A DNA stretch of 64,000 bases from a virus (Duplodnaviria > Heunggongvirae > Uroviricota > Caudoviricetes), in the IMG/VR virus record IMGVR_UViG_3300025838_000019, positions 102,640 to 166,639 of that record; one strand, written 5' to 3'. A program made the translations under genes and the position numbers. Below the pieces are notes generated by a model. It made no database searches, was not told the DNA's origin, and was given only the letters and a program-made list of their open reading frames with translations. Below, in pieces: positions 13,126 to 41,795 of the stretch; within the stretch, counting starts at the first letter, position 1; each line of letters opens with the position of its first letter.

Positions 13126-14479
13126 TGATGAATATTTGCGGAAAGTTCTCCCGTTTCTTAAACCCGAATATTTCTCTGAGAATTCCGACCGCACATTGTT
13201 CAACGAGTTACACCAATTCGTACAAGATTACAATGGTGCGCCAACGGTTGAAGCACTTACATTGGCCATCGAAGACCGGAGAAATCTCACGAATGATGAA
13301 ATGGAAAGATGCAAAGAGAGTTTACAAGAGATTGCATCATCTACACTTGAAGGATCAGAACTTCAATGGCTTGTTGATAGGACCGAAAAGTTCTGTCAAG
13401 AGAAAGCAGTCTACAACGCAGTATTGGGGGCAATTTCTATACTTGACGGGAAGGACAAAACTTCCGAGAAAGGTGCGATTCCCAAGATATTATCGGATGC
13501 CTTGGCTGTAAGCTTTGATAGTTCCGTAGGTCATGATTATTTGGAAAACTCGGATGAACGATATCAATTCTACCACAGACACGAAGAAAGAATCCCATTC
13601 GATTTGGAATTCTTTAACAAGATTACAAAAGGCGGTCTTCCAGCCAAAACGCTCAACATCGCATTGGCAGGAACTGGCGTTGGTAAGTCTCTTTTTATGT
13701 GCCATGTGGCTTCTAGTTGCATGGTACTGGGTAAAAATGTACTTTACATAACAATGGAAATGGCTGAAGAAAGAATTGCGGAACGTATTGATGCAAATCT
13801 TTTGAATGTGACCGTTGATGATTTAGTGTCTATGCCTAAAGATATGTTTGATAAACGAATCAACAAACTACGTGAGAAGACTGTTGGTAAATTAATCATC
13901 AAAGAATATCCAACCGCATCGGCTTCTGTTACACACTTTAGGACACTACTCAATGAGCTCAATCTCAAAAGGTCTTTTAAGCCTGACATTATTTTCGTGG
14001 ATTATCTTAATATCTGTTGTAGTTCAAGACTCAAAGCCGGAGCCAACGTCAACAGTTACACTTATGTCAAAGCTATCGCAGAAGAATTGCGAGGTCTTGC
14101 CGTTGAATTCGGACTACCAATTGTTTCTGCTACGCAAACTACAAGAAGCGGATTTAGTTCATCTGACCCAGGGTTGGAAGATACAAGCGAGTCTTTTGGT
14201 CTGCCAGCAACCGCAGACTTGATGTTTGCTCTTATTTCATCCGAAGAACTAGAAGAAATGGGACAGATTATGGTCAAGCAATTGAAGAATCGTTACAATG
14301 ATCCAACATATCTGAAACGATTCACACTTGGCATCGACCGTTCTAAAATGAGATTGTATGACGTTGAACAATCAGCACAGCAAGGCTTGGCTGATGCTGG
14401 TCATAGTGACAAACCTATAAACACATTCGGCAATAGAGAAAAACCTACCAAGAAGGCATTTGATGGATTTAAAGTTTGA
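13085..14479 (+). CDS. DnaB-family replicative helicase, T4 gp41-like (464 aa)
   Basis: Walker A LAGTGVGKS, NVLYITMEMAEE...RIDANLL block nearly identical to T4 gp41 (NVLYISMEMAEE...RIDANML). Confidence 0.9.
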   Translation: MKLEQTILKNLIYNDEYLRKVLPFLKPEYFSENSDRTLFNELHQFVQDYNGAPTVEALTLAIEDRRNLTNDEMERCKESLQEIASSTLEGSELQWLVDRTEKFCQEKAVYNAVLGAISILDGKDKTSEKGAIPKILSDALAVSFDSSVGHDYLENSDERYQFYHRHEERIPFDLEFFNKITKGGLPAKTLNIALAGTGVGKSLFMCHVASSCMVLGKNVLYITMEMAEERIAERIDANLLNVTVDDLVSMPKDMFDKRINKLREKTVGKLIIKEYPTASASVTHFRTLLNELNLKRSFKPDIIFVDYLNICCSSRLKAGANVNSYTYVKAIAEELRGLAVEFGLPIVSATQTTRSGFSSSDPGLEDTSESFGLPATADLMFALISSEELEEMGQIMVKQLKNRYNDPTYLKRFTLGIDRSKMRLYDVEQSAQQGLADAGHSDKPINTFGNREKPTKKAFDGFKV

Positions 14480-15569
14480 TGAAGCCTTGCATTGTGCAAA
14501 GGTATTTGAAAATTATTTTGGTAACTTCAATCGCATCGATGAATATATGAAGGATCAAAAACTCAAGTCACTTAGTGGTTTGGGTGATCCTTTGTTTCCA
14601 TTGGAAGATGACTTGTTCTCCGATTTTACGATGCATCCAAAAGATATGAATTTTGAAATCATCGAAATGCAAACTGAATCGTGGGAAAACTTGTTGAACA
14701 TTACCAGTTCACACATCAACATTTCTCCTGTTGGTCGTCAGGTTAGGCTTGCTGTTAGAGAAACCAATACAGGTAAGATTGTTGGCTTCTTGAGACTTGG
14801 TTCTCCAGTTATCAACATGAAGCCTCGTAATGAAATGCTAGGTCAGGTCTTCACACAACAAAAAGAATGGGGTACTCGTTTCAATAACTCTGCTATGATG
14901 GGTTTTGTTATTGTGCCAGCACAACCTTTCGGTTACAATTATCTTGGTGGAAAGTTACTTGCAGGTATCTGTACTAGCCATGAAGTGCGTGAAATTGTCA
15001 ACAAGAAGTATGGCATGAACCTGTGCCTATTTGAAACCACAAGTCTGTATGGTTCATCTAAGACCGTGTCTCAATATGATGGCATGAAACCCTTCATTCG
15101 TTACAAAGGTTTGACCGACTCTGATTTTATTCCTATGATGCACGGCCAAGAGTATGATGACCTAGTTGCATTTGTAAAAGATAAAGTTGGTGATATTGTA
15201 GATGAAGATGCTTCAAGTAAGAAGTTGAAAACCACAATGAAGATTATTGCCATGGTTAAAGCATCATTAAAGAGTGATAAAGACGCTTTAAGTGCATTTA
15301 ATGATACAATAACAAAAGCCAAAGACTTGACCGAACAGAAACGTTACTATATCAGTGACTATGGTTTCAAGAATATGGTTGACTATGTGAACTGCAAAAC
15401 TGATGTGTTGATTCCTGGTGAGAACTATGCAAAACATAAAATGGCCAACATTGTTGAATGGTGGAGAAGTAAAGCAATCAATCGTTATGCAACACTACAT
15501 AATGAAGGTCGTTTGAGAACAGAATTGGAAGTCTGGACTTCTGGTAAGGACATTCAGATTATCAGATAA
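14460..15569 (+). CDS. Hypothetical protein (369 aa) in the position T4 uses for primase
   Basis: Long ORF coupled to helicase; no recognisable motif; true gp61-like primase is at 33323. Confidence 0.5.
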   Translation: MMDLKFDEALHCAKVFENYFGNFNRIDEYMKDQKLKSLSGLGDPLFPLEDDLFSDFTMHPKDMNFEIIEMQTESWENLLNITSSHINISPVGRQVRLAVRETNTGKIVGFLRLGSPVINMKPRNEMLGQVFTQQKEWGTRFNNSAMMGFVIVPAQPFGYNYLGGKLLAGICTSHEVREIVNKKYGMNLCLFETTSLYGSSKTVSQYDGMKPFIRYKGLTDSDFIPMMHGQEYDDLVAFVKDKVGDIVDEDASSKKLKTTMKIIAMVKASLKSDKDALSAFNDTITKAKDLTEQKRYYISDYGFKNMVDYVNCKTDVLIPGENYAKHKMANIVEWWRSKAINRYATLHNEGRLRTELEVWTSGKDIQIIR

Positions 15570-15590: not shown

Positions 15591-16340
15591 ATGGCAGCTC
15601 AACAGGGTTTTCAATATGAAGAAAATGCAGCAAAGGTTTTGAAAAAGATGGGTATTGTTCCTAAAAACTTTACACCTGCTGGTGCAAGCCATGACCAACC
15701 AGACTTGATGTTGGAACACAACAAGAAAAAGTCTGGATGTGAATTGAAGATTACAGCTGCATCAGCAGGTTCTCTTGTTTTGAAATACGATACAAAAGAT
15801 AAAAAGAATCCGTGGAAATTTGGTGACATTGACAAAAACGATACAGAAAAGATGTTCATCAAAGACTTGGCTGATGAGATTGGATTGTTTGATACAATTA
15901 GAAAACAATGGAAAGAGATTCCATTCAAAAGAGAAAAAGATGAATTGTGGGAAGCCACAGCAGGTAAACTAACCAAGAAGCAAATCTATGAAAGAGATAG
16001 AGACACCTTCAAGGACATTCGAGGTGAAATTCCTGCAACAAAAATTGAACAGTATTATAACAAGAAGAAGACCTACTATGTAAACGTAGGAACACACGGA
16101 TTTTATTTGATGGGTAGAAGTAACCCATTAAAGTTAAAAGATGTACCAACTTTTGGTTCATCAGCTAAGGCAACATATCGTGCAAGAGTACAATATAAAG
16201 GAAGTGACAATTATCAATTCACTTTTGAAATGCAGTTCTCCATACCCGCTGCAAAAAAGTCACCTTACAACATAGCACCTGTCGATGGTAAAACTGTAAA
16301 GATCATCGAAAAGGATATCAACTTAAACTGTTTCGTATAA
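15591..16340 (+). CDS. Hypothetical protein (249 aa)
   Basis: GAGG RBS; lysine-rich. Confidence 0.5.
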   Translation: MAAQQGFQYEENAAKVLKKMGIVPKNFTPAGASHDQPDLMLEHNKKKSGCELKITAASAGSLVLKYDTKDKKNPWKFGDIDKNDTEKMFIKDLADEIGLFDTIRKQWKEIPFKREKDELWEATAGKLTKKQIYERDRDTFKDIRGEIPATKIEQYYNKKKTYYVNVGTHGFYLMGRSNPLKLKDVPTFGSSAKATYRARVQYKGSDNYQFTFEMQFSIPAAKKSPYNIAPVDGKTVKIIEKDINLNCFV

Positions 16341-16341
16341 A

Positions 16342-16644
16342 ATGGCACTCGTAGATTTTGACAAACTCGCAAAAGAATATGCTAGCGTTAACGTTAGTGA
16401 TACATTCAATTTTTCTGCTATATCGGAAGATGAATACAAAAAAACTCTTGAAGATGCACAAAATGATGCATCAGAATTGACAGCTGAACAATATAAAGAA
16501 AAGTTGAAGAAACTTGAAGCAATGATTGTTCCTTTCCTACACAAACTACATAGTACAGGCGATAAAGAATATATCTATTGGCCTAATCGTAAACCTGTTA
16601 TTGAAAAACAAATTGAAGAAATTTTGAAACTGACTAGAGAATGA
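16342..16644 (+). CDS. Hypothetical acidic protein (100 aa)
   Basis: ORF tightly packed between neighbours. Confidence 0.45.
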   Translation: MALVDFDKLAKEYASVNVSDTFNFSAISEDEYKKTLEDAQNDASELTAEQYKEKLKKLEAMIVPFLHKLHSTGDKEYIYWPNRKPVIEKQIEEILKLTRE

Positions 16645-16645
16645 T

Positions 16646-17353
16646 ATGACTGCTACTGTTATTATGCCAACTACAGGTTCGCCTGAGTTGAAAGATGCTT
16701 TGACTTCGGTATTAAATCAAACTTACCCAACAACCGCATATGTTGTTGCGGATGGACCAAAGGCACATTCATCGACAAGACTGAATGTTGGTTACCATGA
16801 AAATCTATACATTTGTAATTTACCAATCAACGTTGGTGCAAATGGTTATTATGGCCATCGTGTGTATGCCGCTTTTACACATTTGGTAAATACCAAGTAT
16901 GTTCTTTACTTGGATCAAGATTGTTGGTTTGAACCAACTCACGTAGAGTCTTGCATCAAACACATAGAAGAAAACAACCTAGACTGGTCCTATTCACTCC
17001 GGAACATCATGGATAAAGATGGTAAATTCTTGACTACCGATGATTGTGAATCTCTTGGTAAATGGCCAGTTTTTAGTGGTAATTATAACCATATAGACAC
17101 TAATTGCTATTGCATAAAAACTGAAGTTGCGATAAAATTGGCACAGATTTGGCACGGTGGTTGGGGACAAGATAGAGTTTGGTTACAAGCCTTGTCGCAA
17201 TACTTTCCAAAATTTGATTGTACGGGTGAATACACCGTCAATTATAGAGTTGCAGGAAATGCTGGCTCAGTAAAACCAGAATTCTTCTTGCATGGTAATG
17301 AAGTGATGAAACAGAAATATAATGGAGTTTTCCCATGGCGAAACAAAATCTAA
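16646..17353 (+). CDS. Glycosyltransferase family 2-like (235 aa)
   Basis: N-terminal IMPTTGSPELKDALTSVLNQTYP and DxD-like LDQDCWF typical of GT-A fold GT2 enzymes. Confidence 0.6.
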   Translation: MTATVIMPTTGSPELKDALTSVLNQTYPTTAYVVADGPKAHSSTRLNVGYHENLYICNLPINVGANGYYGHRVYAAFTHLVNTKYVLYLDQDCWFEPTHVESCIKHIEENNLDWSYSLRNIMDKDGKFLTTDDCESLGKWPVFSGNYNHIDTNCYCIKTEVAIKLAQIWHGGWGQDRVWLQALSQYFPKFDCTGEYTVNYRVAGNAGSVKPEFFLHGNEVMKQKYNGVFPWRNKI

Positions 17354-18201
17354 TTATTGGTGGTTGCACCAATTACGGTATCAATGAACTAAAACCATGG
17401 GTGTTGTCTATCAATGAGACAATGCCTAATGTGAAAAAAGTAATGTGTGTTGGTAATGCGACACAAGAAACCAGAGATTGGTTGGTTGAACAAGGCTTTG
17501 AAATTTTTCCTATGCCACAAGCCAACATTCCAGTTCATGTGTTGCGCTTCTTGTCTATCTATGAATACCTACGTCAGAATTGGGAACAGTTTGAATATGT
17601 TATCACCACTGATGTGAAAGATGTGTACTTCCAAAAAGACGCATTTAAATTCTTAGACTACCATAATGTTGGTGTCAGAGATATGCACCAATTGGTTTGT
17701 GCCTCCGAAGCACTGAAATACAAAGATGAATCTTGGGGTAACGAGAACTTATTGCAAGCCTATGGTCCATACATCCACAATCTGTTCAAAGATAATATTA
17801 TCTTCAACGTTGGTGTTCTAGGTGGTTCTGCTGAATACATGAGAGACTTGGTGTTTAACATCTTCTCTAATGCAACCAATCGTCCAATTGCTATTGTTGA
17901 CCAAGCCGTGTTCAACGTACTAATCAACACACAACCATACAAAAATATTGTGTTCAAAACTTGGATGGATCATGGTTGGGCAGTTCAAGCAGGTACAGTT
18001 GCAGACCCATCTAAGATTGATGGTTTCAGACCAAATCTTTTGGAACCAGAACCAAAATTTGTTGATGGTAAAGTAGTCAACTCTAAAGGCACAGAATTTG
18101 CCATCGTACACCAATATGACCGTGTGCCAGAATGGAAGAAGTTCGTGGCTGAAAAATACGGACAAGAAGATCAATCTCAATATTTTACATATAAAGCATG
18201 A
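17335..18201 (+). CDS. Hypothetical protein in glycosylation cluster (288 aa)
   Basis: Coupled between two GT genes; no clear motif. Confidence 0.45.
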   Translation: MAKQNLIIGGCTNYGINELKPWVLSINETMPNVKKVMCVGNATQETRDWLVEQGFEIFPMPQANIPVHVLRFLSIYEYLRQNWEQFEYVITTDVKDVYFQKDAFKFLDYHNVGVRDMHQLVCASEALKYKDESWGNENLLQAYGPYIHNLFKDNIIFNVGVLGGSAEYMRDLVFNIFSNATNRPIAIVDQAVFNVLINTQPYKNIVFKTWMDHGWAVQAGTVADPSKIDGFRPNLLEPEPKFVDGKVVNSKGTEFAIVHQYDRVPEWKKFVAEKYGQEDQSQYFTYKA

Positions 18202-19187
18202 AAAAAATCTTATACGTAGTGCATCGTTATGCACCATACCCTGGTGGTTCTGAAAATTATGTGCGTGATATGGCTGAAGAAACCTTATCACGTGGTCATC
18301 AAGTTGCCGTATTTGCAGGCGAACACAAAGGTGATGTGAACGGAGTTAGAGTAACTTCAGATGTACAAATCTTTGGTGAAAAATGGGACTTGATTGTTGT
18401 TCATGGTGGTGATGTACCATTACAAGATTTTGTTCTTACAAACATCAATAAAATCCCTTCGCCGGTTATGTTTATGTTGATTCGTCCTTCACAATCATAT
18501 ACCTATACTGTTGCAATGAGAGACTGTAGTTACATTGCTTGTTCAACCGAAGAAGATTGGGAATTTGTTAGAGCCAAAGGTTATGAACATAAGTCAGTAC
18601 AAGTATCACATGGCGTTGTCGGTGATAACTGTTTGGCTAATAGAAAGAAATACGAATCTTTACCTGATCTTACAGATGATACTTTCCGTAAAAGATACGA
18701 TATCAAAACTAAAAACATGTTCTTGTCTTGTGGTGGTTTCTGGCCAAACAAAGCATTCCATGAACTTATCGATTGTTTTAAGAAAGCAAACCCATCAGAT
18801 ACAACATTAGTGTTGACTGGTTATGATAATCGTCACGGTATCATGCCACCAGATGAGGAAAACATCAGAACATTGATGTTAGACAATCACAAAGAAGTGT
18901 ATGAAGCTATTGCGGAATCAGACCTATATATTATGCACTCACACAGTGAAGGTTTTGGTCTAGTTCTATTGGAGTCGATGGTCAACACGACTCCTTGGGC
19001 TGCAAGAAACATTGCTGGTGCTAGAGTATTGAAAGACTATGGTTTCACATATGATAATGATGAACAGTTGATTGAATATTTGAAAGATTTTAAACCTGAT
19101 CTAAATCAAATTTCGGAAGGTTATCATTTTGTATGGAAGAACCATCAAATTAAAAATACAGTTGATGGAATATTGAACGTACTATGA
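18198..19187 (+). CDS. Glycosyltransferase family 1/4-like (329 aa)
   Basis: GGSENYVRDMAEE N-terminus and C-terminal EGFGLVLLESM motif (GT-B fold EX7E region). Confidence 0.65.
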   Translation: MKKILYVVHRYAPYPGGSENYVRDMAEETLSRGHQVAVFAGEHKGDVNGVRVTSDVQIFGEKWDLIVVHGGDVPLQDFVLTNINKIPSPVMFMLIRPSQSYTYTVAMRDCSYIACSTEEDWEFVRAKGYEHKSVQVSHGVVGDNCLANRKKYESLPDLTDDTFRKRYDIKTKNMFLSCGGFWPNKAFHELIDCFKKANPSDTTLVLTGYDNRHGIMPPDEENIRTLMLDNHKEVYEAIAESDLYIMHSHSEGFGLVLLESMVNTTPWAARNIAGARVLKDYGFTYDNDEQLIEYLKDFKPDLNQISEGYHFVWKNHQIKNTVDGILNVL

Positions 19188-20557
19188 CCAAATTAGTTAT
19201 CTTTGACCTTGATGGTGTGTTACTTGATTCACGTGAATTACATTATGAAGCTTTGAATGAAGCACTTCGTAAAATCGGTGAACAATTCATAATCACCAGA
19301 GAAGAACACCTATCGACCTACGATGGGTTAAACACCACCAAAAAACTCCAGTTGTTATCACAAAACAAAGGTTTGCCAACAGAATTGTACGACCAAGTTT
19401 GGCAAGATAAACAACAAGCAACCTTTGACTTAATTCCAAATGCACCAAAAAATCCTTCAATAAGATATATTGTAGGCCAATTAAAGTTGCATGGTTGGAA
19501 AGTTGCTGTTGCATCAAACTCAATACGACACACAGTAAAGCTTGCATTAGCTTCTATGGGTGTATTGGAACACATTGATTACTATGTGAGTAATGAAGAT
19601 GTGTTTAGAACAAAACCATATCCAGAAATGTATTGGAAATGCATGACCGCATTAGGTGCTTTACCAAAAGATACAATCATCGTTGAAGATAGTCACATTG
19701 GTCGTGAAGGTGCAATCAATTCTGGCGCAACATTATATCCAGTGAAAGATGCTTACGAATTAAATGGTATAGTGTTTATGCAATATCTCGAAAGCTTTGA
19801 GAAATCACAAACAAGTAAAAATATACCATGGAGAAATAAAAAGATGAACGTACTTATTCCTATGGCTGGTGCAGGTTCTAGATTTGCACAAGCTGGTTAT
19901 ACATTCCCTAAACCATTGATTGATGTGAATGGTAAACCAATGATTCAGGTTGTGGTTGATAACCTAAACGTTGAAGCACACTTCATTTTCTTGGTTCAAA
20001 AAGAACACTACGAGAAGTACAATCTACAATCAGTTTTGAATTTGATTGCACCTGGATGTGATATTGTACAAGTTGATGGCTTGACAGAAGGTGCTGCATG
20101 TACTACACTATTAGCTAAAGACTTCATTAATAATGATGAACCATTGTTGATGGCTAACTCAGACCAATTCGTAGAATGGAACTCCAATGAATGTTTATAT
20201 GCTTTTACTGCCGACTCAATTGATGGTGGCATTGTCACTTTTAAGTCAACTCATCCTAAGTGGTCTTTTGCCAAAATCGGAGAAGACGGATTTGTTACAG
20301 AAGTCGCTGAGAAGAATCCTATTAGTGACATTGCTACTGTCGGTATTTACTATTGGAGCCATGGTTCTGACTACGTGAAGTATGCAGAACAGATGATTGC
20401 AAAAAATATTCGTGTCAATAACGAATACTATGTTTGTCCAGTATTCAATGAAGCTATTGCAGATGGCAAGAAATTCCGTGTGAAGAACATTAATAAAATG
20501 TGGGGTCTAGGTACTCCAGAAGATTTACAACATTATTTGGAACACCACAAATCATGA
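19184..20557 (+). CDS. Bifunctional HAD-family phosphatase/phosphomutase + sugar-1-phosphate nucleotidyltransferase (457 aa)
   Basis: N-term LVIFDLDGVLLDS (HAD motif I, beta-phosphoglucomutase-like); C-term domain begins NVLIPMAGAGSRF (G-x-G-[ST]-R nucleotidyltransferase signature as in RmlA/GlmU). Confidence 0.65.
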   Translation: MTKLVIFDLDGVLLDSRELHYEALNEALRKIGEQFIITREEHLSTYDGLNTTKKLQLLSQNKGLPTELYDQVWQDKQQATFDLIPNAPKNPSIRYIVGQLKLHGWKVAVASNSIRHTVKLALASMGVLEHIDYYVSNEDVFRTKPYPEMYWKCMTALGALPKDTIIVEDSHIGREGAINSGATLYPVKDAYELNGIVFMQYLESFEKSQTSKNIPWRNKKMNVLIPMAGAGSRFAQAGYTFPKPLIDVNGKPMIQVVVDNLNVEAHFIFLVQKEHYEKYNLQSVLNLIAPGCDIVQVDGLTEGAACTTLLAKDFINNDEPLLMANSDQFVEWNSNECLYAFTADSIDGGIVTFKSTHPKWSFAKIGEDGFVTEVAEKNPISDIATVGIYYWSHGSDYVKYAEQMIAKNIRVNNEYYVCPVFNEAIADGKKFRVKNINKMWGLGTPEDLQHYLEHHKS

Positions 20558-21273
20558 ACGTAGCATTAGTTTTAACAGGACACTTGCGTTGTTGGGAACA
20601 AGTGTTTCCAAACACCAAAGAAACAATCCTTGATCGTTGGAACCCAGACGTATTCATCCATTCTTGGGACGAACAAGCTTGGTGGGACCCACATAGTAAA
20701 GAAGGTTTTGTTGCAAATTCACCTGAAATTGATATCAAAGGTGTTCGTGAAGCATATAAACCTGTTTCTTTTGTAACTGAAGACTTTGAAAACTATCGTG
20801 CAGGCTTTGACCAACACGCCGAATTATATGAAAAACACTATCATGTAAAACGTAATATCATTTCCATGTTCTATAAGATGCACAAGGGTATGGAATTGGT
20901 AAATGATTATACAGCTAGAACAGGCAAACACTACGATATGGTTATTCGTATGCGTCCTGATTTGGTGTTTAAGAATCATCTACCCAACTTTGATCCTAAT
21001 AAATTCTATACTATCTTGCATAGAAACCATGTTGGCCAAGGTACAGGTGATATGTTCCAAGTCAGTAACCCATGGTTGATGACCATTTATACAAACATAC
21101 TTACCGTTCTACCGCACATCTATAAAGAAACTGGCATTTTGTGTCCACATATTGTATCAGAACACTTCTTTAAAAAGATGAACTTTCCTTGGGAAGAATT
21201 TCCAATCGAACGTATGTTGATGCACACTCCAGCCGGTGAGTATAAACCAAAACAAGTATACGGATTTCAATGA
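20554..21273 (+). CDS. Hypothetical protein in glycosylation cluster (239 aa)
   Basis: ATGA overlap with upstream gene; Trp/His-rich, no clear motif. Confidence 0.45.
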   Translation: MNVALVLTGHLRCWEQVFPNTKETILDRWNPDVFIHSWDEQAWWDPHSKEGFVANSPEIDIKGVREAYKPVSFVTEDFENYRAGFDQHAELYEKHYHVKRNIISMFYKMHKGMELVNDYTARTGKHYDMVIRMRPDLVFKNHLPNFDPNKFYTILHRNHVGQGTGDMFQVSNPWLMTIYTNILTVLPHIYKETGILCPHIVSEHFFKKMNFPWEEFPIERMLMHTPAGEYKPKQVYGFQ

Positions 21274-21728
21274 TTTATATTGCACATAGAGGCCTGATTG
21301 CAGGTCCAGACAAAGACAAAGAAAATAACCCTGAATGGATTCAAGAAGTTTTGAATAAGGGTTTTTCGGCTGAGATTGACCTATGGAGATACAACGATGA
21401 GTTAATCTTAGGTCACGATGAACCACAATATAGAGTCTCGATAGACTTCTTACTGGCTAACCGTCAGAAGTTGTGGATACATGCAAAAGATATTGATGCA
21501 TTAGAGTATCTGTCCACTGGTCAAGGTCTAAACTACTTCTGGCACGACAAAGACGACTACACCATTACTAGCTATGGTTATATTTGGGCTTATCCAGGTA
21601 AGAAAGTACCTTCAATGGGTATTTGCGTACAACCGGAATGGGACAGCAATTTTGACCCTACGAACTTTAAACCTAAATGCATAGGTATTTGTTCAAAACA
21701 TGTCGGACTACTAGCCGAATATAACTAA
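21270..21728 (+). CDS. Glycerophosphodiester phosphodiesterase (GDPD)-like protein, short (152 aa)
   Basis: IAHRGL...ENNPEW...FSAEIDLWRYNDELILGHDEP mirrors GDPD catalytic N-terminal motifs (HRG...ENT...E.D...HD). Confidence 0.5.
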   Translation: MIYIAHRGLIAGPDKDKENNPEWIQEVLNKGFSAEIDLWRYNDELILGHDEPQYRVSIDFLLANRQKLWIHAKDIDALEYLSTGQGLNYFWHDKDDYTITSYGYIWAYPGKKVPSMGICVQPEWDSNFDPTNFKPKCIGICSKHVGLLAEYN

Positions 21729-21775: not shown

Positions 21776-22954
21776 ATGTATACATTCAAGTCGTTTTTAA
21801 CAGAAGAAACCGAAGAAGGTACGAAACTTAAGCATATTACTCATGCTGAGGATCGTCCTTTGCAGCATGGAGCAAAAGGGTTTCAACATGCATATAATGC
21901 TTTACATCATGTGCATGACCATATCAAATCAGGTGCAAATAGTTCGGCTCTAACTATGAAATATGATGGTTCTCCGTCAGTTGTTTTCGGTCACCATCCA
22001 GAGACAGGTAAGTTTTTTGTTGCATCAAAATCAGCCTTCAACAAGAACCCTAAACTGAATTTCAACCACAAAGATATTCAAAAGAACCATGGCCACGCAC
22101 CAGGTTTGATGGACAAACTACATTCCGCACTGAATCATCTACCAAAAATTGCACCAAAATCTGGTGTGTATCAAGGTGACCTGATGTATTCAGAAGGTGA
22201 TTTGAAACACAAAGATGGTGGAAAAGTATCGTTTGAACCAAATACCATCAGATACACAGCCTCCGGTGACAAGGCAGATAAGATCAAAAATTCTAAGATG
22301 GGTATTATCGTGCATACACAATATCACGGTAACGATATCCATACGATGGCTGCGGATCCACATCCAGACCTACACAACTTTGCACAACACAAAGACGTAT
22401 GGCACCAGTCTGCAAACCACGACACAAAACACATTCACTATTCTGAAGAAGACCAAAAAGAATTTAAAAAACATATGGCCGAAGCTGATAAGATTCATTC
22501 AGCAAATAGAGGTACAATGTACAAAGCCACAGAACCACATCGTGGTGAAGGTAGTCATCTAGAAACTTACATTAACCATACAGTAAGAACCGATGAAGAA
22601 CCTACTTCTGAAGGTTTGAAAAAACACATTCAAGATAAGTATGACAAGTCAGCAGCTAAACTAAAAACTCCTGCTGGCAAGGCAAAACGATCACAAGAAG
22701 CAAAATCGCATATGTTACATATTGATGCAAATAAAGAACAATATGATAACATGTTAAAAATGCACTCACATCTACAAGCTGCTAAAAATGTTCTAATTAA
22801 AAACTTAGAACAACATGAGGGTGGACTTGAACATCATATTGACAACAAGAGAAGTAAGCCAGAAGGTTTCGTTGTCAATCATGGTGGCGAACCAACTAAA
22901 TTGGTTAACCGTAAAGAGTTTGCTCGTGCCAATTTATTGAAGGTTAGAAAATGA
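21776..22954 (+). CDS. His/Lys-rich low-complexity protein (392 aa)
   Basis: About 10% His, many HxH/HH dipeptides; no enzymatic motif. Confidence 0.55.
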   Translation: MYTFKSFLTEETEEGTKLKHITHAEDRPLQHGAKGFQHAYNALHHVHDHIKSGANSSALTMKYDGSPSVVFGHHPETGKFFVASKSAFNKNPKLNFNHKDIQKNHGHAPGLMDKLHSALNHLPKIAPKSGVYQGDLMYSEGDLKHKDGGKVSFEPNTIRYTASGDKADKIKNSKMGIIVHTQYHGNDIHTMAADPHPDLHNFAQHKDVWHQSANHDTKHIHYSEEDQKEFKKHMAEADKIHSANRGTMYKATEPHRGEGSHLETYINHTVRTDEEPTSEGLKKHIQDKYDKSAAKLKTPAGKAKRSQEAKSHMLHIDANKEQYDNMLKMHSHLQAAKNVLIKNLEQHEGGLEHHIDNKRSKPEGFVVNHGGEPTKLVNRKEFARANLLKVRK

Positions 22955-23946
22955 AAACACTGAATTACTTATTGTTTGAAGCATTAGAAATGTCACGTGG
23001 TTTCATCAAAGGAACTGGTGCAGAAGCTGCACGCCACGAAAGACAATACATCACACCACATCTTGGTGCAACAGATTATACTCACACTCTAGGTAAAGCA
23101 CATGATGATGTACCGGCTGGCGCAAAGTTAATGTTCCACAAAACAGAAGTGCTTGATGGTAAATTGCATGTACATGCTACTGACGACCAAACTCGTACAA
23201 AACATGTTATTCCAGTTTCAAAGATTCATAAACCAGGTGAAGTAAAAGCCAACAAAGGTTTTGCATATGAACAACAATTCGTTGACCGTTTGAAGAAACA
23301 TGGTTTGATGGAAGGTGAAGCTGCTGGTTTCACATCAGGTAATGACTTCAATCTAGTTAACAAAAAGAACAAGACCAAACACAAAGGTGAAGTACACAAC
23401 GAAAGTGCTTTACAAGGTGAAACAAAAGCAGGCAAGACAGCCGCATTTGGTCAACTAACAATTGCATACGATAAGAAAAAAGGTGGTTGGCATATTCCAG
23501 ATGATGCTCGTCAAAAACGACCTGGTTATGCAAAACACATTGAAGACAAGGGTATTGTTGAACATATGAACAAACACCACAAACCAGAAAAACAAGGTCT
23601 GGTTGCTGGTGGTCCACTTGCAAAGAACGTTATGTTTGAACATGATAATTTAGAACCAGCAAATGCATATTTGGGTGACCATCATGTAGACGTTGTTCAA
23701 GTTGGTAAACATGGAACATACAAGGTCGGTAAGAAAGATAAAACAGGCCACGGTCTTCCTAGTTTGACAGGTAAAGGTCAATGGAGAGTCCGCCAAAAGA
23801 CTGCCGATCCACTAAAACGTACAGTACAATTCATGGTTAAAAATGCAGATAAGAGTCACGTTGACCTAGATAATGATGACCACTTGGCAGCCATGGCAAA
23901 AACATTGGGTCATAAACCACTTAACTTCAAGAAATCAGAAGAATGA
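22951..23946 (+). CDS. His/Lys-rich low-complexity protein (331 aa), paralog-like of 21776
   Basis: Similar composition (KH-rich, HKPEKQG, HHKPEK). Confidence 0.55.
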   Translation: MKTLNYLLFEALEMSRGFIKGTGAEAARHERQYITPHLGATDYTHTLGKAHDDVPAGAKLMFHKTEVLDGKLHVHATDDQTRTKHVIPVSKIHKPGEVKANKGFAYEQQFVDRLKKHGLMEGEAAGFTSGNDFNLVNKKNKTKHKGEVHNESALQGETKAGKTAAFGQLTIAYDKKKGGWHIPDDARQKRPGYAKHIEDKGIVEHMNKHHKPEKQGLVAGGPLAKNVMFEHDNLEPANAYLGDHHVDVVQVGKHGTYKVGKKDKTGHGLPSLTGKGQWRVRQKTADPLKRTVQFMVKNADKSHVDLDNDDHLAAMAKTLGHKPLNFKKSEE

Positions 23947-25844
23947 AATCATTCCTACAGTTAGTCGAGGAAAAAGAAAAAACCAAAAAGCCAGTCGTAA
24001 TGGCTTTTGGTCGTATGAATCCGCCTACAACCGGTCACTTAAAACTGATCGATAAGGTACGTTCAGAAGCAGAGAAACGTAAAGCTGCACATACAATTAT
24101 TGTTTCTCATTCACAAGACACCAAAAAGAACCCACTTTCTGGTGCTCAAAAGGTTAAACACCTAAAGCGTTATTCTCCAGGTACTCACTTTGAAGCATCT
24201 TCAAAAGAACACCCAACAATTATGCACCATGCAGCACGTTTACATGCAGCAGGTCATGACCACTTGGTGGTTGTTGGTGGTTCAGACCGTGTAAAAGAAT
24301 ACCACGATTTATTGCACCGTTACAATGGAAAACCAGATAAGTCTGGCCATGTACCTTTCAACTTTAAAAAGATTGAAGTGGTTTCAGCAGGACACCGTGA
24401 TCCTGACGCTGAAGGTGCAGAAGGTATGTCCGCTACTAAGATGAGAGATCACGCCAAGAATAATGACTTCAGTTCATTCCGTCAGGGTGTGCCACATCAC
24501 GTTTCAGATAACCATGCAAGAGAATTGATGAAAGATGTCCGTAAAGGTATGGGTATCAACGAATCTTTTGACCATGGTATCTTTAAGGCAGTTTTTGTGA
24601 CTGGTGGTCCAGGTTCTGGTAAAGATGTTGTTATTCGTGAAGCCATTCCAGAAGCACATGCAGTAGAATTGAATGTGGTTCAAGCTTACGATTACCTTGC
24701 AGACAAAATGAAGTTGTCGGAACAGTCTAGTGACTACCGCAGAGAAGCATTGCGTACCCGTGGTCCTTTGATTATCAATGGTCCAGCCGATGACATTCAA
24801 CGTATTTCATACATCAAAGAAGAGCTAGAAGAACTAGGATATAACACTTTGATGATTTTTGTACACACTTCCGATGAAGTATCACAAGAGCGCAACACCA
24901 GATTGTCACGTATGATGGTAGAATCCGTAAGACATGACAAATGGATTCGTTCACAAAAAAGTAAAGATATGTACTTTGAAATGTTTGAACACATGATTGA
25001 ATTTGATAACTCCGATTCGATTATTGAAGAAAATATCAACGATATCTACCAAATTTCTGAAAAATTCTTTGATAAAAAGAGTTTCAATGACATTTCTGAG
25101 AGCTGGCTAGAAAGTCAAGGAAAGCTAAATATACTAGAGAAAAGTTCGAAATCTATTCAGACTTCTACCGTTAAAAAATACAACCCTTTCTATCAGGCAG
25201 CTGGACCGTCAGATGCAATTCCAGACAACGATAGAAAGAGAAGTTCATCGGATCAAATCAAGGGTGATACTTTCCCTAGAAAAAATCCTAATGGTAATGG
25301 TCATTCAGGTGGTGCTTGGTCTGGTGCATATAGTACCGAAGAAGCAAAACCTATGTTAAAGATTAGTGCTCCTCCAAAAGAACCAAAATTTAGACTTGAT
25401 AAAGATAAATTGAAGAAGTTGAAAAGAGGAGATACAAGTTTAAGTGCTGCTCGTGTTGGTAAACCTTCTGGCGTTGGACCAGAATATGATACGAGAGCTG
25501 GTGGTCAGGGTGCCGCAGCAGGCGCCGGCTTAGGTGACCAAACGTACAGTGAAGATTATGCTGGTCCTACAACAAGTAATGCAGATGTAAGCAATTATGC
25601 AGGTATGACTGGTGTATCCGTAAATCCTTTGGATTCAAGATATCAATCTAAAGAATTTGACAAATTTAGAAAGAAATTTAAGAAAGAAGCCATTGATGAT
25701 CCAGGTTCAACAGACATGGGTGTTGGCGGAACTCTTGGTGGTGCAAGTAACAAAGAAGGTATGGATACCTACAAGGATACCATGCGTAATGTACAAAACG
25801 ATTACGGTCTGAAAATTAAAAAGAAGAAAAAAGGGGCAAAATAA
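23943..25844 (+). CDS. Nucleotidyltransferase (T-x-G-H motif) + P-loop kinase-like domain + Gly/Lys-rich tail (633 aa); NadR-like architecture
   Basis: VVMAFGRMNPPTTGHLKLID (HxGH-class nucleotidyltransferase, PPAT/NMNAT-like) then VFVTGGPGSGKD Walker A, then disordered G/K-rich C-terminus. Confidence 0.5.
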   Translation: MKSFLQLVEEKEKTKKPVVMAFGRMNPPTTGHLKLIDKVRSEAEKRKAAHTIIVSHSQDTKKNPLSGAQKVKHLKRYSPGTHFEASSKEHPTIMHHAARLHAAGHDHLVVVGGSDRVKEYHDLLHRYNGKPDKSGHVPFNFKKIEVVSAGHRDPDAEGAEGMSATKMRDHAKNNDFSSFRQGVPHHVSDNHARELMKDVRKGMGINESFDHGIFKAVFVTGGPGSGKDVVIREAIPEAHAVELNVVQAYDYLADKMKLSEQSSDYRREALRTRGPLIINGPADDIQRISYIKEELEELGYNTLMIFVHTSDEVSQERNTRLSRMMVESVRHDKWIRSQKSKDMYFEMFEHMIEFDNSDSIIEENINDIYQISEKFFDKKSFNDISESWLESQGKLNILEKSSKSIQTSTVKKYNPFYQAAGPSDAIPDNDRKRSSSDQIKGDTFPRKNPNGNGHSGGAWSGAYSTEEAKPMLKISAPPKEPKFRLDKDKLKKLKRGDTSLSAARVGKPSGVGPEYDTRAGGQGAAAGAGLGDQTYSEDYAGPTTSNADVSNYAGMTGVSVNPLDSRYQSKEFDKFRKKFKKEAIDDPGSTDMGVGGTLGGASNKEGMDTYKDTMRNVQNDYGLKIKKKKKGAK

Positions 25845-35342: not shown

Positions 35343-37133
35343 ATGTATATGGAATATCTCGGTATAAGAATAGATTTAGAAAGAGATGGATTATTTGATG
35401 AACTCGGAATTAAAAGACTCAAAGAGTCCTACATGCGTGAAGATGAAGAATCACCACAACACAGATTCGCTTACGTATCGAAAGCGTTTGGTACAAATAC
35501 AGAACATGCACAGCGACTATACGACTACGCAAGTAAACATTGGCTTTCTTATTCTACTCCTATACTTTCTTTCGGTCGTAGTAAGAGAGGTATGCCAATT
35601 TCTTGTTTCCTTAATTACATTGAAGATACTGCGGAGGGTCTAGTTGATAATCTTTCAGAAACTAATTGGCTTAGTATGTTTGGTGGCGGTGTTGGGATTG
35701 GGTTTGGTATACGTTCAGCGGACGACAAATCTACTGGCGTTATGCCGCACCTCAAGATTTACGATGCATCTAGCTTGGCTTATCGCCAAGGCCGTACTCG
35801 TAGGGGCAGTTATGCTGCTTATCTTGACATTAGCCATCCTGATATTATTCCATTCCTAGAAATGCGTAAACCAACGGGTGATCCTAATGTCCGTTGTTTA
35901 AATCTACATCACGGTATTAACATTACTGATGACTTCATGCGTATCATCGAAACATCCATGTTAGACAAGGATGCAAATGACGATTGGCCATTGGTTGATC
36001 CAAAGTCAGGAGAAGTAAGAGAAGTGGTCTCTGCTAGAAGTTTGTGGCAACAGATTCTAGAGTTGCGTATGCATACAGGTGAACCATACTTGCACTTTAT
36101 CGATACAAGCAATCGTCATCTACCAAAATTCCTAAAAGACAAAGGCTTGAAAGTACACCAATCAAATCTTTGTTCAGAAATTATTTTGCCTACAGATGAA
36201 AGACGTACAGCTGTTTGCTGCCTTTCTTCATTAAACTTGGAGACTTATGATGAGTGGAAAAATAATAAACTTTTTCTACGGGACGTGGCAGAAATGCTTG
36301 ATAACGTGTTGCAATATTTTATTGATAATGCACCTGACTCTATTGCTCGTGCCAAGTATTCTGCTAGCCGTGAACGTTCTATTGGCGTTGGTGCTTTGGG
36401 TTTCCATGCTTATCTTCAGCGAAAAAATGTGGCCTTCGAATCTGTAGTTGCAAAGTCGATCAATAATAACATCTTCAAAACTATTAGAAAAGGATTAGAT
36501 GATGCAAATCTTCAACTTGGTAAAGAACGTGGTGAAGCACCCGATGCTAAGGGTACTGGTTTCCGTTTCAGTCATATTATGGCTATTGCTCCAAATGCTT
36601 CTTCGTCTATCATCTTGGGAAATACTAGCCCTAGTATTGAGCCTTGGCGTGCTAACGCATACCGTCAGGACACTTTATCTGGCTCATTTTTGAACAAGAA
36701 CAAGTATTTGGATAAAATCATCAAAGGTTTGACGCAAACAGAAGAACAGTATAATGATGTTTGGTCTTCTATCATTGCTAATGATGGTTCATGCCAACAC
36801 TTGGATATTTTGAATGAAGAACAAAAGTCAGTATTCAAAACATCTATGGAGATTGACCAACGTTGGGTAATTGACTTGGCAGCTGATCGTCAACAACACA
36901 TCGACCAAGCACAATCACTAAACGTATTCTTCCGTCCGGATGCAAATATCAAATACATTCATGCGATTCATTTTATGGCATGGAAAAAAGGATTGAAGAC
37001 GATGTACTATTGCCGTAGTGAGAAACTTGCTAAGGCAGATAAAGTATCTAAACGTATTGAACGTGAAGTAATCAAAGAACTAGATATGACCCAAATTGCA
37101 CAAGGTAACGACTGTATTGCATGTGAGGGATAA
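35343..37133 (+). CDS. nrdA: Ribonucleotide reductase large subunit, class I NrdA-like without ATP cone (596 aa)
   Basis: MFGGGVGIGF, NLCSEI active-site motif, C-terminal CIACEG cysteine pair. Confidence 0.85.
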   Translation: MYMEYLGIRIDLERDGLFDELGIKRLKESYMREDEESPQHRFAYVSKAFGTNTEHAQRLYDYASKHWLSYSTPILSFGRSKRGMPISCFLNYIEDTAEGLVDNLSETNWLSMFGGGVGIGFGIRSADDKSTGVMPHLKIYDASSLAYRQGRTRRGSYAAYLDISHPDIIPFLEMRKPTGDPNVRCLNLHHGINITDDFMRIIETSMLDKDANDDWPLVDPKSGEVREVVSARSLWQQILELRMHTGEPYLHFIDTSNRHLPKFLKDKGLKVHQSNLCSEIILPTDERRTAVCCLSSLNLETYDEWKNNKLFLRDVAEMLDNVLQYFIDNAPDSIARAKYSASRERSIGVGALGFHAYLQRKNVAFESVVAKSINNNIFKTIRKGLDDANLQLGKERGEAPDAKGTGFRFSHIMAIAPNASSSIILGNTSPSIEPWRANAYRQDTLSGSFLNKNKYLDKIIKGLTQTEEQYNDVWSSIIANDGSCQHLDILNEEQKSVFKTSMEIDQRWVIDLAADRQQHIDQAQSLNVFFRPDANIKYIHAIHFMAWKKGLKTMYYCRSEKLAKADKVSKRIEREVIKELDMTQIAQGNDCIACEG

Positions 37134-37765
37134 TGAAAACCATTGCTCTATTTGTAGGACCTCCTTACGTTTCTACACAATCGTGCAATGGTATAATTCA
37201 AGCTTTATCACCAAAGTATAATTTTAGATTATTTTCAAAACATGAGGTAGAAGATGGATTCTTTGAAAAAGTGGATGCTGTATGCTTCGGTGGCGGTTTC
37301 GGCAGTTCTGACAGCTGGGACTTTCTTCTTAGGAATAATGTTGATTCTGTCCGAACCTTCGTGCAACGAGGTGGGGTGTATATCGGAATCTGCATGGGTG
37401 GGTATTGGGCAGCCTCTGATTATTTCGACATTCTTTCTGGTGTGGATGTGTGTCAATATATCAAAAGGCCGGAAACAGATACAAGAAGACCCCATGCCAA
37501 AAACTTGGAAGTTGACTGGAACGGTAAACGGGAAAGAATGTTCTTTTACGATGGATTTGCAGTTACAGGAAATGAAAGAAATTTTGAAACATACGCAAGA
37601 TACATGAACGGTGATCCAATGGCTATTATACAAAACAACATTGGTATAATAGGTTGTCACCCTGAAGCGACTGAGTATTGGTATGATGAATATACTTGGT
37701 TAAAAGGTAAATATGAAAGCAAACACAATTTGTTGTTAGAATTTGTTGACGAGATTATGAAATGA
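37133..37765 (+). CDS. Class I glutamine-amidotransferase-like / BPL_N-like protein (210 aa)
   Basis: GGGFGSSD...GGVYIGICMGGYWA resembles GATase1-fold proteins; function unclear. Confidence 0.4.
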   Translation: MKTIALFVGPPYVSTQSCNGIIQALSPKYNFRLFSKHEVEDGFFEKVDAVCFGGGFGSSDSWDFLLRNNVDSVRTFVQRGGVYIGICMGGYWAASDYFDILSGVDVCQYIKRPETDTRRPHAKNLEVDWNGKRERMFFYDGFAVTGNERNFETYARYMNGDPMAIIQNNIGIIGCHPEATEYWYDEYTWLKGKYESKHNLLLEFVDEIMK

Positions 37766-40987: not shown

Positions 40988-41412
40988 TGAAAAACATATA
41001 TGAAATTTGGGACGAATTTGAGAATTGCGATACGAAAAAAGAACGTATGACCGTGATTCAAAACAATTTGTCAAAAGCCTTGCATGACGTATTACTATTG
41101 ACATTCCATCCGGATTATCAATTTTTGGTAACTGAAATGCCAGAGAACTATTCACCTAAGTGGGAAAATACAAATGGTTTCTCTCGTTGTCAGTTATCTA
41201 CAGAATTGCGTAAGCTGTACATGTTCCGTAAAGGAGATGGTACAGCTGAAGCGTTGAGTGATAGAAAGAGAAATGAATTATTGATTCAATTGCTGGAATC
41301 TCTTGAACCAAGAGAAGCTGAAGTTGTTATGGGTATCTTTCAAAAAGACCAACATGTACCTGGTCTAACATATAAATTTGTTAAAGAAGCATTTCCTAAC
41401 ATGTTACCCTAA
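40987..41412 (+). CDS. Hypothetical protein (141 aa)
   Basis: ATGA-coupled ORF. Confidence 0.45.
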   Translation: MKNIYEIWDEFENCDTKKERMTVIQNNLSKALHDVLLLTFHPDYQFLVTEMPENYSPKWENTNGFSRCQLSTELRKLYMFRKGDGTAEALSDRKRNELLIQLLESLEPREAEVVMGIFQKDQHVPGLTYKFVKEAFPNMLP

Positions 41413-41795
41413 TGACCAAAAAAGAACGAATAATAGTTGTTTGTGGAAAATTTGATACTTTAAATCGTGATGAATTGCAATTTCTACGTAAAGCCAAAGA
41501 TAAGGGTGATTGGTTAGTTGTCGGTGTTTATTCAGATTTGTGGATGACCAACAACAATAATGGTTTTATGCAAAACCATGACACGAGAATTGATATTGTT
41601 CAGAGTATAAAGTATGTAGATGAAGTTTTCAGATTTAACGACTATGACGGTTCAGCTTGTCAACTATTAAAGATTGTAAAAATTGTGTATCCAAATTCCC
41701 ATATTACATTTATAACGGAAGAGGATATAGCATCTATGCCCGAGAGTCATATCAGAGGCATAAATTTTGAGGTAATAAAATTAGGAGAAGATTAA
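41412..41795 (+). CDS. TagD-like cytidylyltransferase-fold protein with HxGH motif replaced by N-R-D-E (127 aa)
   Basis: IIVVCGKFDTLNRDELQFLRKAKDKGDWLVVGV and KYVDEVF align to glycerol-3-P cytidylyltransferase (ITYGTFDLLHWGHIKLLERAK..DYLVVAIS, RYVDEVI) but both His are substituted. Confidence 0.5.
   Translation: MTKKERIIVVCGKFDTLNRDELQFLRKAKDKGDWLVVGVYSDLWMTNNNNGFMQNHDTRIDIVQSIKYVDEVFRFNDYDGSACQLLKIVKIVYPNSHITFITEEDIASMPESHIRGINFEVIKLGED

Follow-up and report, generated by a model that had tools for sequence, protein, structure and literature searches.

We analysed a 64,000-nucleotide stretch of a caudoviricete genome (IMG/VR record IMGVR_UViG_3300025838_000019, positions 102,640 to 166,639; hereafter the window, from whose first nucleotide all coordinates are counted), in which six co-directional open reading frames (ORFs) of the plus strand, A to F, occupy positions 16646-21728 and form a candidate glycan-building module (Table 1). 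The genes are tightly packed: A and B overlap by 19 nt, and the B/C, C/D, D/E and E/F junctions are ATGA overlaps of 4 nt. An earlier note, made from the letters alone, had described these six ORFs as a glycosylation and nucleoside diphosphate (NDP)-sugar module, and both the ORFs and the description held. All six lie on the plus strand; the same six were called on independent assemblies of the same phage (ENA ERZ27272006, ENA ERZ27271997, SRR5261040 and JGI 3300025420), whose longest contig has 166,639 bp; the description was supported by Pfam for A, C and D and by folds for B and E; and these genes are syntenic in dozens of IMG/VR contigs, which is clustering far beyond chance. Only the start of E was refined: the ORF lister had placed it at a GTG at 20500, but in public contigs of this phage the gene was called from the ATG at 20554, which is most likely the real start. 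The six proteins are all free of hydrophobic stretches that would fit a membrane helix (maximum KD19 value 1.38).

Table 1 Features of the module and its upstream neighbour (window coordinates)
Feature	Position	Strand	Length	Assignment
100-aa ORF	16342..16644	+	100 aa	Acidic; abuts A; conserved upstream neighbour, module membership uncertain
ORF A	16646..17353	+	235 aa	GT2-family (GT-A) glycosyltransferase
ORF B	17335..18201	+	288 aa	Predicted GT-A-fold glycosyltransferase, resembling retaining GT8/GT6-type enzymes
ORF C	18198..19187	+	329 aa	GT4-family (GT-B) glycosyltransferase
ORF D	19184..20557	+	457 aa	Fusion of HAD-IA phosphotransferase domain (about 1-200) and sugar-1-phosphate nucleotidyltransferase (about 220-455)
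ORF E	20554..21273	+	239 aa (ATG at 20554)	Divergent GT-A/nucleotide-diphospho-sugar-transferase fold, DUF7796 type
ORF F	21270..21728	+	152 aa	Mini GDPD/GP-PDE-like putative metal-dependent phosphodiesterase

Profile searches divided the module into two halves: A, C and D scored above the Pfam cutoffs, so that their annotation stood, and B, E and F had no significant Pfam family. A matched Glycos_transf_2 (PF00535) over residues 4-116 (3.1e-10, 40.7 bits against a cutoff of 23.3) and is thus a member of GT2; it has a DQD motif within YLDQDCW, matched PHROG 14775 ("glycosyltransferase"), and with a maximum hydropathy of 0.53 it has no transmembrane segment. C belongs to GT4 of the GT-B enzymes by Glycos_transf_1 (PF00534; 1.5e-12, 47.8 bits against 26.4), with further matches to Glyco_trans_1_4 (PF13692; 2.3e-10, 41.3 bits against 27) and to the Glyco_transf_4 N-terminus (PF13439; 1.9e-6, 28.5 bits against 28.5), and an EX7E-type motif, SEGFGLVLLESM, is present. 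The nearest NCBIfam models of C, all far below their cutoffs, include the small-acceptor GT4 enzymes BshA and MshA. The GT-A and GT-B transferases that had been noticed on the flanks of the fused enzyme were thus confirmed by Pfam.

B and E had been left as two unknowns, and at the level of Pfam they stayed so: B had no significant family, and the sole match of E, to DUF7796, stayed below threshold (E = 0.0088, 15.4 bits with the cutoff at 27). Sequence-profile searches of both against the PDB also gave nothing significant. But AlphaFold2 models, built on alignments of metagenomic homologues (1749 for B and 182 for E, all unnamed), identified both as GT-A-fold transferases; the models were confident (pLDDT of 86.4 for B and 92.1 for E) and strongly similar to solved GT-A enzymes. 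Compared with viral models, E matched DUF7796-type proteins of giant viruses and cyanophages, and the closest structural relatives of B and E include protein-glycosylating and giant-virus enzymes. Because B and E are also GT-A folds, the module comprises four glycosyltransferases and no kinase. For the same reason we rejected the idea that E or B is the missing anomeric kinase, which had been considered by analogy with AfhE of the arabinosylation pathway discussed below.

The fused enzyme D matched HAD_2 over residues 5-183 (6.7e-27, 95.2 bits against a cutoff of 23.8) and NTP_transferase (PF00483) over residues 227-407 (2e-9, 37.9 bits against 21.2). Both motifs that had been pointed out in it, DLDGVLLDS and PMAGAGSRF, were found, and its description as a HAD-IA domain joined to an RmlA-superfamily nucleotidyltransferase was upheld by Pfam. 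The HAD domain scored 43 bits with the HAD-IA model TIGR01509 (cutoff 29.4), and it has all four catalytic motifs (DLDG, ASNS, K(PYPE) and EDS) together with a cap like that of beta-phosphoglucomutase (beta-PGM); the second domain carries the G-x-G-x-R...PK signature of the RmlA superfamily (PMAGAGSRF...PKPL), to which it belongs. The names given to homologues in the databases are "HAD-IA family hydrolase", "dTDP-glucose pyrophosphorylase" and "hypothetical".

More specific labels for D did not hold. The HAD domain reached 75.6 bits with the beta-PGM equivalog TIGR01990 (cutoff 189.4) and 89.9 bits with the PGMB-YQAB subfamily (cutoff 153), and among NCBIfam models sugar phosphatases (HxpB), HAD pyrophosphatases (BT2121-type, PpaX) and beta-PGM all scored in the same range. 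Its best PDB match was the sugar phosphatase TM1254 (4e-12), ahead of beta-PGM (2e-11) and of CbbY, a bisphosphate phosphatase (9e-11), and a BT2127-type pyrophosphatase scored similarly. When the domain was aligned to beta-PGM with HMMER, the catalytic DxD proved conserved, and the column that we take to be His20 also aligns. As a criterion for beta-PGM we used the distal phosphate-binding residues, presumably R49, S116, K117 and N118 of the L. lactis enzyme, and of these R49 and K117 are not conserved, the columns taken for them holding G and I. A true beta-PGM yields the beta-anomer, which RmlA-type enzymes do not use. The self-sufficient route from sugar-6-phosphate to NDP-sugar that had been proposed was therefore not established, because the HAD domain is far below the beta-PGM cutoff and phosphatases and pyrophosphatases match it about equally. 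From its sequence, the HAD domain may be a mutase, a sugar- or bisphosphate phosphatase, or a pyrophosphatase, the last option resting on NCBIfam and PDB similarity and on a review according to which HAD-IA pyrophosphatases exist.

For the nucleotidyltransferase domain, the best PDB match was 4evw (8e-19), an uncharacterised NDP-sugar pyrophosphorylase of V. cholerae, with GlmU, ManC and GalU much weaker, and every named equivalog was far below its cutoff (rmlA_long, TIGR01208, 49.7 against 320; Arch_glmU 47.3 against 292; GalU 23.9 against 327), so that these scores point to no particular sugar or nucleotide. D thus shares HAD motifs and a beta-PGM-like cap with beta-PGM and a superfamily signature with RmlA, but it is below both equivalog cutoffs and its nearest solved nucleotidyltransferase is 4evw, not RmlA, and the two labels hold at superfamily level only. 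A heptose pathway (GmhB/HddC) was also considered for D and was rejected, since the HAD domain is of type IA and not GmhB-like and the HddC match was marginal (E = 0.0086).

F had no Pfam match at E <= 0.1, and it matched phrog_34507 with 1.3e-23. When the profile of its family of 34 sequences was searched against the PDB, only GDPD chains were matched, and weakly (7e0v, E = 0.0069, residues 2-52). In this alignment H6, R7, E18, N19, E35, D37 and H49 fall on the GDPD motif HR..EN..ExD..HD, and these residues are invariant across the 34 homologues, as are H71 and K73. So the GDPD-like character that had been given to F is carried by the alignment of the catalytic motif and by the GDPD-only profile matches, but not by the standard Pfam profiles. 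At 152 aa, F is only about 60% as long as a normal GDPD, whose full (beta/alpha)8 barrel takes about 230-250 aa. A homologue in SAR11 is named "GP-PDE domain-containing protein" in UniRef, and in other proteins F is fused to an FkbM methyltransferase, a GT61 domain or a Methyltransf_24 domain.

The phage itself is, judged from its sequence, an uncultured aquatic phage of distant T4-like type, because its DNA polymerase is at most 49% identical to that of any GenBank phage (the top matches being Synechococcus myoviruses) and it has no nucleotide-level match in the phage collection; megablast of the module against 50,697 phage records gave no match, so relatives were found at protein level only. 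In IMG/VR at least 591 relatives of D were found, and the top 80 of them are 74-83% identical. We searched by tblastn 82 related phage loci, which were 80 IMG/VR contigs and the regions of S-CAM9 and S-PRM1, and D was present in 82/82, F in 67, B in 61, E in 53, C in 43 and A in 21, which means that D is the most conserved gene of the module. Flanking backbone genes also recur in these loci, namely a DruA-like gene, the 100-aa ORF, DUF6267 and a 633-aa protein; the 100-aa ORF, which was used solely as a tblastn query, matched directly upstream of the module in 39 of the 82. Many relatives have 1-4 kb of additional genes between B and D, and these include HtrL/YibB (19 loci), an NDP-hexose 4,6-dehydratase (5 loci), one 2OG-Fe oxygenase, TylF-type, FkbM-type and class-I methyltransferases, and extra GT2 genes.

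In the cultured cyanomyoviruses S-CAM9, S-PRM1, DSL-LC03, B3, B23 and S-8S55, D is 65-67% identical. In S-CAM9 and S-PRM1 the ORFs on both sides of D match E weakly (24-26% identity), and an F homologue (45% identity) follows downstream of D; glycosyltransferases and a nucleotide-sugar epimerase surround them, and A, B and C had no tblastn match in the two regions. The F homologue of S-CAM9 is a 152-aa ORF at about 152549-153007 of NC_031922.1, of which GenBank annotates only the 3' part (gp064, 288 bp, hypothetical), while the 5' part runs over the end of gp065 in a different frame; the gene seems to be mis-annotated, as does the one in S-PRM1. The clusters of these cyanomyoviruses (Kyanoviridae; S-CAM9 gp059-gp071, S-PRM1 gp092-gp103) and the "LPS-like" (lipopolysaccharide) glycosyltransferase clusters of pelagimyophages are the same kind of island as the module. 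They share the fused HAD-nucleotidyltransferase gene, weakly E-like ORFs, the mini-GDPD ORF and the surrounding glycosyltransferases and epimerase, but they differ in their glycosyltransferase complement, which in S-CAM9 and S-PRM1 is without A, B and C matches, and in their position, since those of the cyanophages lie in the hyperplastic region rich in auxiliary metabolic genes (AMGs) and the island described here lies in the replication block. In the literature such clusters have been read as host-surface or DNA glycosylation genes without experiments. Islands of this kind are thus already known and have been discussed speculatively, and the module joins them.

To look for the cassette in cells, we scanned one genome per prokaryotic species with the F profile and obtained 57 loci, some of whose short contigs from single-amplified or metagenome-assembled genomes could be viral. 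Most of the 57 belong to Pelagibacteraceae, including HTCC9565 (a 512-kb contig), HIMB123 and nBUS_30 (a complete chromosome), and the others to SAR86, Fonsibacter, Magasanikbacteria, Saccharimonadales, Bacteroidota, Bacteriovoracaceae and a few archaeal metagenome-assembled genomes. A D homologue directly adjoins F in 47 of the 57 loci (about 0.1 kb apart, in either order) and lies 1.5-3.3 kb away in 3 more. These D homologues are usually full length and usually 46-64% identical, the F homologues 37-52%, and in six of the cellular D-F loci the nucleotidyltransferase domain stands beside F alone, without HAD. In HTCC9565 the order is recJ, GT1 (705 aa), GT2, RmlC, F, D, a 252-aa ORF, GT2 and an xerD-like gene; the 252-aa ORF has no Pfam match and is named "Glycosyltransferase" in UniRef. 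This was the one SAR11 locus annotated gene by gene, the other cellular loci being summarised by family only, and no export or polymerisation genes were found in its immediate D-F flanks. An E homologue was not found in the SAR11 D-F loci, and a relationship of E to the 239-252-aa gene after D in SAR11, or to B, was rejected with hhalign probabilities of 0.1-0.2%. In both HTCC9565 and nBUS_30 the F-D cassette sits in a small glycosyltransferase island at the same site, between recJ and the xerD-like recombinase gene, and because the glycosyltransferase content differs between the two strains, we consider the site a compact variable glycan locus.

A census of 148 neighbours in 14 cellular loci gave NAD-dependent Epimerase (17), GDP_Man_Dehyd-type 4,6-dehydratase (16), RmlD_sub_bind (13), GT1/GT4, FkbM (5), Polysacc_synt_2 (5), GT2 (4), CMP-sugar cytidylyltransferase, UDP-glucose dehydrogenase and a KdsA-like enzyme as the commonest families. 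By gene content, these neighbourhoods look typical of surface-polysaccharide islands. The module therefore resembles such bacterial islands (the recJ-xerD site of Pelagibacteraceae, those of SAR86 and others) in having a homologous adjoining D-F pair, around which the cellular copies have GT1/GT4, GT2, RmlC, dehydratase or epimerase and FkbM genes, and it differs from them in that it is without dehydratase and epimerase genes and carries the phage-specific GT-A proteins B and E. D and F, or minimally the nucleotidyltransferase domain and F, thus form a conserved functional cassette of glycan biosynthesis common to cells and phages, with F as a predicted obligate partner of D. No homologue of either appears to have been characterised.

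In the window, a Pfam scan placed a family-B DNA polymerase, UvsX, a gp41-type helicase and the DruA-like protein upstream of the module, and DUF6267, a cytidylyltransferase-like/P-loop protein, a primase-like Toprim protein, ThyX, ribonucleotide reductase (RNR) subunits, RNase H, a SegE-type endonuclease and CobS downstream. The island therefore sits within the replication block, between the gp41 helicase/DruA-like gene and DUF6267, and because the GC content of the module (0.35-0.38) equals that of the flanks, it is not a recent insertion. Promoter-like sites in the window were at or below the shuffled expectation and terminator-like sites only slightly above it, and a scan of the window for the T4 late-promoter motif TATAAATA found none near the module, with a single copy at 32614. 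From position and gene overlaps, we infer that the module is co-expressed with the replication genes.

Building on the domain identities, the folds, the synteny and the pairing of D and F in cells, we propose the following steps, of which we infer the order, the sugar and its acceptor, and the reactions that F and the HAD domain catalyse. The six genes would form a soluble, cytoplasmic glycan-building island that is shared, and probably has been exchanged, between the phage lineage and the surface-polysaccharide islands of aquatic bacteria. The nucleotidyltransferase domain of D would turn a sugar-1-phosphate and an NTP into an NDP-sugar, probably an NDP-hexose, because 4,6-dehydratase, RmlC and epimerase neighbours recur. 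The fused HAD-IA domain would do a coupled phosphoryl step, either delivering the sugar-1-phosphate as a mutase or bisphosphate phosphatase or removing pyrophosphate and so pulling the reaction forward. A (GT2), B (GT8/GT6-like GT-A), C (GT4) and E (DUF7796-type GT-A) would add sugars stepwise to a non-DNA acceptor, and F may perform a phosphodiester step tied to the product of D or to the glycan, either trimming or installing a phospho-linked substituent or making the phospho-substrate of D. The acceptor that we favour is an intermediate of a host envelope glycan (LPS, O-antigen or capsule-like), so that infection would re-decorate the cell surface.

We give this acceptor a probability of about 0.4; it is preferred since cellular surface-glycan islands are the native setting of the cassette and the module lies in early/middle or AMG-type regions. 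Virion proteins or host surface polymers had been mentioned in the earlier note as the alternative to DNA, and this alternative is now the better-supported reading. Several points weigh against a host envelope glycan. The module has no initiating phosphoglycosyltransferase, flippase, polymerase or ABC exporter, and therefore it could only extend lipid-linked intermediates made by the host; it is not a complete O-antigen or capsule locus, since no such Pfam family was found in the module or its flanks and no hydrophobic segment in its proteins. What a lytic phage would gain from remodelling the surface is hypothetical, the GDPD assignment of F comes from a weak profile match (E = 0.007) over one third of the protein, and the model-based kinship of B and E to protein-glycosylating and giant-virus enzymes would fit glycosylation of the virion equally well.

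If the virion is the acceptor, D would supply the NDP-sugar and the four soluble glycosyltransferases would decorate capsid, tail or fibres before or during assembly, as virion-protein glycosylation occurs in chloroviruses, mimiviruses and some mycobacteriophages. We hold this to be somewhat unlikely, even though it is nearly as good as the envelope reading because the enzymes are soluble, lipid-carrier machinery is absent and B and E have their fold kinship; the fold family of E is common to many giant-virus proteins, in viruses whose own machinery decorates the virions. Relatives differ strongly in their glycosyltransferase content, as would be expected if the glycan is exposed, and the sugar O-methyltransferases that they carry are characteristic of surface glycans in viruses and bacteria. 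B and E are structurally closest to the giant-virus glycosylation machinery (chlorovirus A64R-type and mimivirus R699-type glycosyltransferases, DUF7796 proteins), and both systems are virus-encoded, soluble and derived from bacterial-like sugar genes, but the resemblance is at fold level only (10-26% identity), and fold similarity does not identify an acceptor. Moreover, the module belongs to the replication or early-middle block and has no late-promoter motif close to it, its cyanophage counterpart is found in the AMG-rich region and not with structural genes, the D-F cassette is native to cellular polysaccharide islands, and we know of no report of glycosylated T4-like virions, though no search was aimed at one. 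Returning to the host envelope glycan, its rivals also include DNA, which the earlier note had put first by analogy with T-even and RB69-like phages. Here the glycosyltransferases would transfer the NDP-sugar of D onto a hydroxylated base to evade restriction, and the place of the module among replication genes and next to a DruA-like gene would suit it. GT-B and GT-A enzymes drawn from LPS and teichoic-acid pathways also serve in known DNA-glycosylating phages, some of which bring an NDP-sugar route of their own that has a nucleotidyltransferase and a HAD phosphatase. But every known route requires a hydroxylated pyrimidine: the hydroxymethylcytosine of T-even phages and the 5-hydroxycytosine of RB69 and DLP3 are made by a ThyA homologue (PMC13326640), and in the other route a C5-methyltransferase and TET make a glycosylatable 5-hydroxymethylcytosine (bioRxiv 2023.12.21.572611). 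The Pfam scan of the window (ORFs of at least 120 aa, nearly all on the plus strand and the longer ones on the minus strand, several shorter ORFs being left out) found no ThyA-family hydroxymethylase or hydroxylase, no C5-methyltransferase and no TET, ThyX being the only thymidylate synthase; the annotation of the complete S-CAM9 genome, which has the same D-E-F core, likewise lists ThyX only, with no ThyA-type enzyme, C5-methyltransferase or TET. The dCMP hydroxymethylase that should accompany such a system was thus neither among the scanned ORFs of the 64-kb window nor annotated in S-CAM9, and tblastn with an unverified E. coli ThyA query and no positive control gave nothing in the window, the S-CAM9 genome and the related loci (1.3 Mb in all). 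In the six proteins no SIS or kinase domain was found by Pfam or folds, so the module is without the SIS isomerase and AfhE-type kinase of an AfhE/AfhF-type UDP-arabinose route. The comparison with the arabinosyl-5-hydroxycytosine pathway of RB69, DLP3 and HY126 (AfhE nucleotidyltransferase-kinase, AfhF HAD phosphatase, API, GT-B arabinosyltransferases and a ThyA-type 5hodCMP synthase; PMC13326640) therefore has two sides: both have, in a T4-like phage, a phage-encoded NDP-sugar supply by a nucleotidyltransferase and a HAD-fold enzyme followed by several glycosyltransferases, but here the nucleotidyltransferase is fused to HAD and not to a kinase, the HAD is of type IA and not GmhB-like, and SIS, kinase, ThyA homologue, dCTPase and the dNMP kinase set are missing from the window. 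No DNA-modification family was among the 25 commonest neighbour families of bacterial and archaeal D-F loci, and the accessory genes of relatives are sugar O-methyltransferases and 4,6-dehydratases. Because the precursor enzymes were not found and D-F is distributed in cells, in whose polysaccharide islands it is native, the analogy is not supported and glycosylation of DNA is unlikely, with little chance in our view, the search having covered 64 kb of the approximately 167-kb genome, which leaves it some room and counts to that extent against a host envelope acceptor.

It is also improbable that the genes serve a small-molecule or phospho-alcohol pathway. In one form of it, a glycosyltransferase would glycosylate a phosphorylated acceptor, for example glycerol-3-phosphate released by F, and the HAD domain would then remove the phosphate, so that D, F and one glycosyltransferase make a soluble glycoside after the models of glucosylglycerol, sucrose and mannosylglycerate synthesis; in another, the nucleotidyltransferase of D would activate a phospho-alcohol produced by F. 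GDPD enzymes do release sn-glycerol-3-phosphate, the HAD-IA family includes sugar-phosphate and glycerol-phosphate phosphatases, BshA and MshA are among the nearest, though far sub-cutoff, models of C, the nucleotidyltransferase domain without HAD pairs with F in some cellular loci, and the phage also encodes a TagD/ECT-like cytidylyltransferase at 41412-41795. But four glycosyltransferases, together with the methyltransferases and dehydratases of relatives, point to an oligosaccharide and not to a simple glycoside; a synthase of GT20, GT55 or GT81 type is absent; glycerol-3-phosphate, being a central metabolite, does not require a supply of its own; and by best matches the nucleotidyltransferase of D is in the sugar-1-phosphate family and not TagD or LicC. 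The product of 41412-41795 (plus strand) is a 127-aa cytidylyltransferase-like protein that matched ethanolamine-phosphate (4e-8), TagD glycerol-3-phosphate (1.5e-6) and choline-phosphate cytidylyltransferases; it could use glycerol-3-phosphate or a phospho-alcohol released by a GDPD, and it lies 20 kb from the module and is not linked to F in cells.

What is new here is the assignment of B and E as glycosyltransferases, the finding of no DNA-modification precursors, and the recognition of the HAD-nucleotidyltransferase and mini-GP-PDE pair as a compact and very widespread two-gene cassette, which is common to SAR11, SAR86, the candidate phyla radiation (CPR), Bacteroidota and hundreds of phage contigs. 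The glycosyltransferase islands found in aquatic T4-like phages routinely receive the annotation "LPS or DNA glycosylation", and none is known to have been tested; the present analysis narrows these options, since the DNA route is without its required precursor enzymes in the searched sequence and the genes outside donor supply all encode proteins of glycosyltransferase fold. A bolder interpretation, which we regard as speculative and rather improbable, is that the D-F cassette encodes an undescribed route to a nucleotide-activated donor for a surface glycan in SAR11, SAR86, CPR bacteria and their T4-like phages. The donor could possibly be a phospho-linked or otherwise unusual sugar made via a phosphodiester intermediate, and the phage would copy or rewrite the host surface or receptor glycan or coat its own virion, a DNA acceptor via a hydroxylation route not yet described being a smaller possibility. 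If true, this would be a new glycan chemistry in the most abundant cells of oceans and lakes and a phage auxiliary function of a new class. In surface waters SAR11-type cells and their phages are dominant, and their surface-glycan chemistry therefore bears on phage receptors and host range; the cultured S-CAM9, S-PRM1 and Pelagibacter strains carry the cassette, so the question is directly testable.

Some neighbouring genes of the window also deserve description. Directly after the gp41-type helicase gene, 14460-15569 (plus strand) encodes the 369-aa DruA-like protein (Pfam DruA, Druantia defence protein A, E = 7e-11), whose homologues are 55-82% identical at the same position in 22 related phage contigs and weaker (33-38%) elsewhere in 4 more; why a defence-system family is kept in a phage replication block is unexplained. 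Between this gene and the module, the 249-aa ORF at 15591-16340 (plus strand) has no Pfam match; it had a tblastn match in 1 of the 82 related loci (29% identity) and an ORF of equal size at the same position in a public contig of the same phage, and it may be a recently acquired gene. Downstream of the module, 21776-22954 (plus strand) matched DUF6267 with E = 2e-98 and has an MKYDGSP stretch, similar to the KxDG motif found in ligases and in capping nucleotidyltransferases. Two genes further, 23943-25844 (plus strand) encodes the 633-aa protein, with a cytidylyltransferase-like HxGH motif (Pfam CTP_transf_like, 4e-5), a GGPGSGKD P-loop and a long low-complexity tail. S-CAM9 gp098 and gp097 ("cytidyltransferase") look like counterparts of DUF6267 and the 633-aa protein by position and size alone, and the two proteins may work as a pair in nucleic-acid repair or in an NAD-related function. 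Upstream of the DNA polymerase gene, 4570-6024 (plus strand) encodes a 484-aa protein with DUF7788 (3.6e-43), DUF2828 and a weak VWA domain, and between the genes of the large and small RNR subunits, 37133-37765 (plus strand) encodes a class-I glutamine amidotransferase-like protein (GATase 3.6e-6, BPL_N 7e-8).

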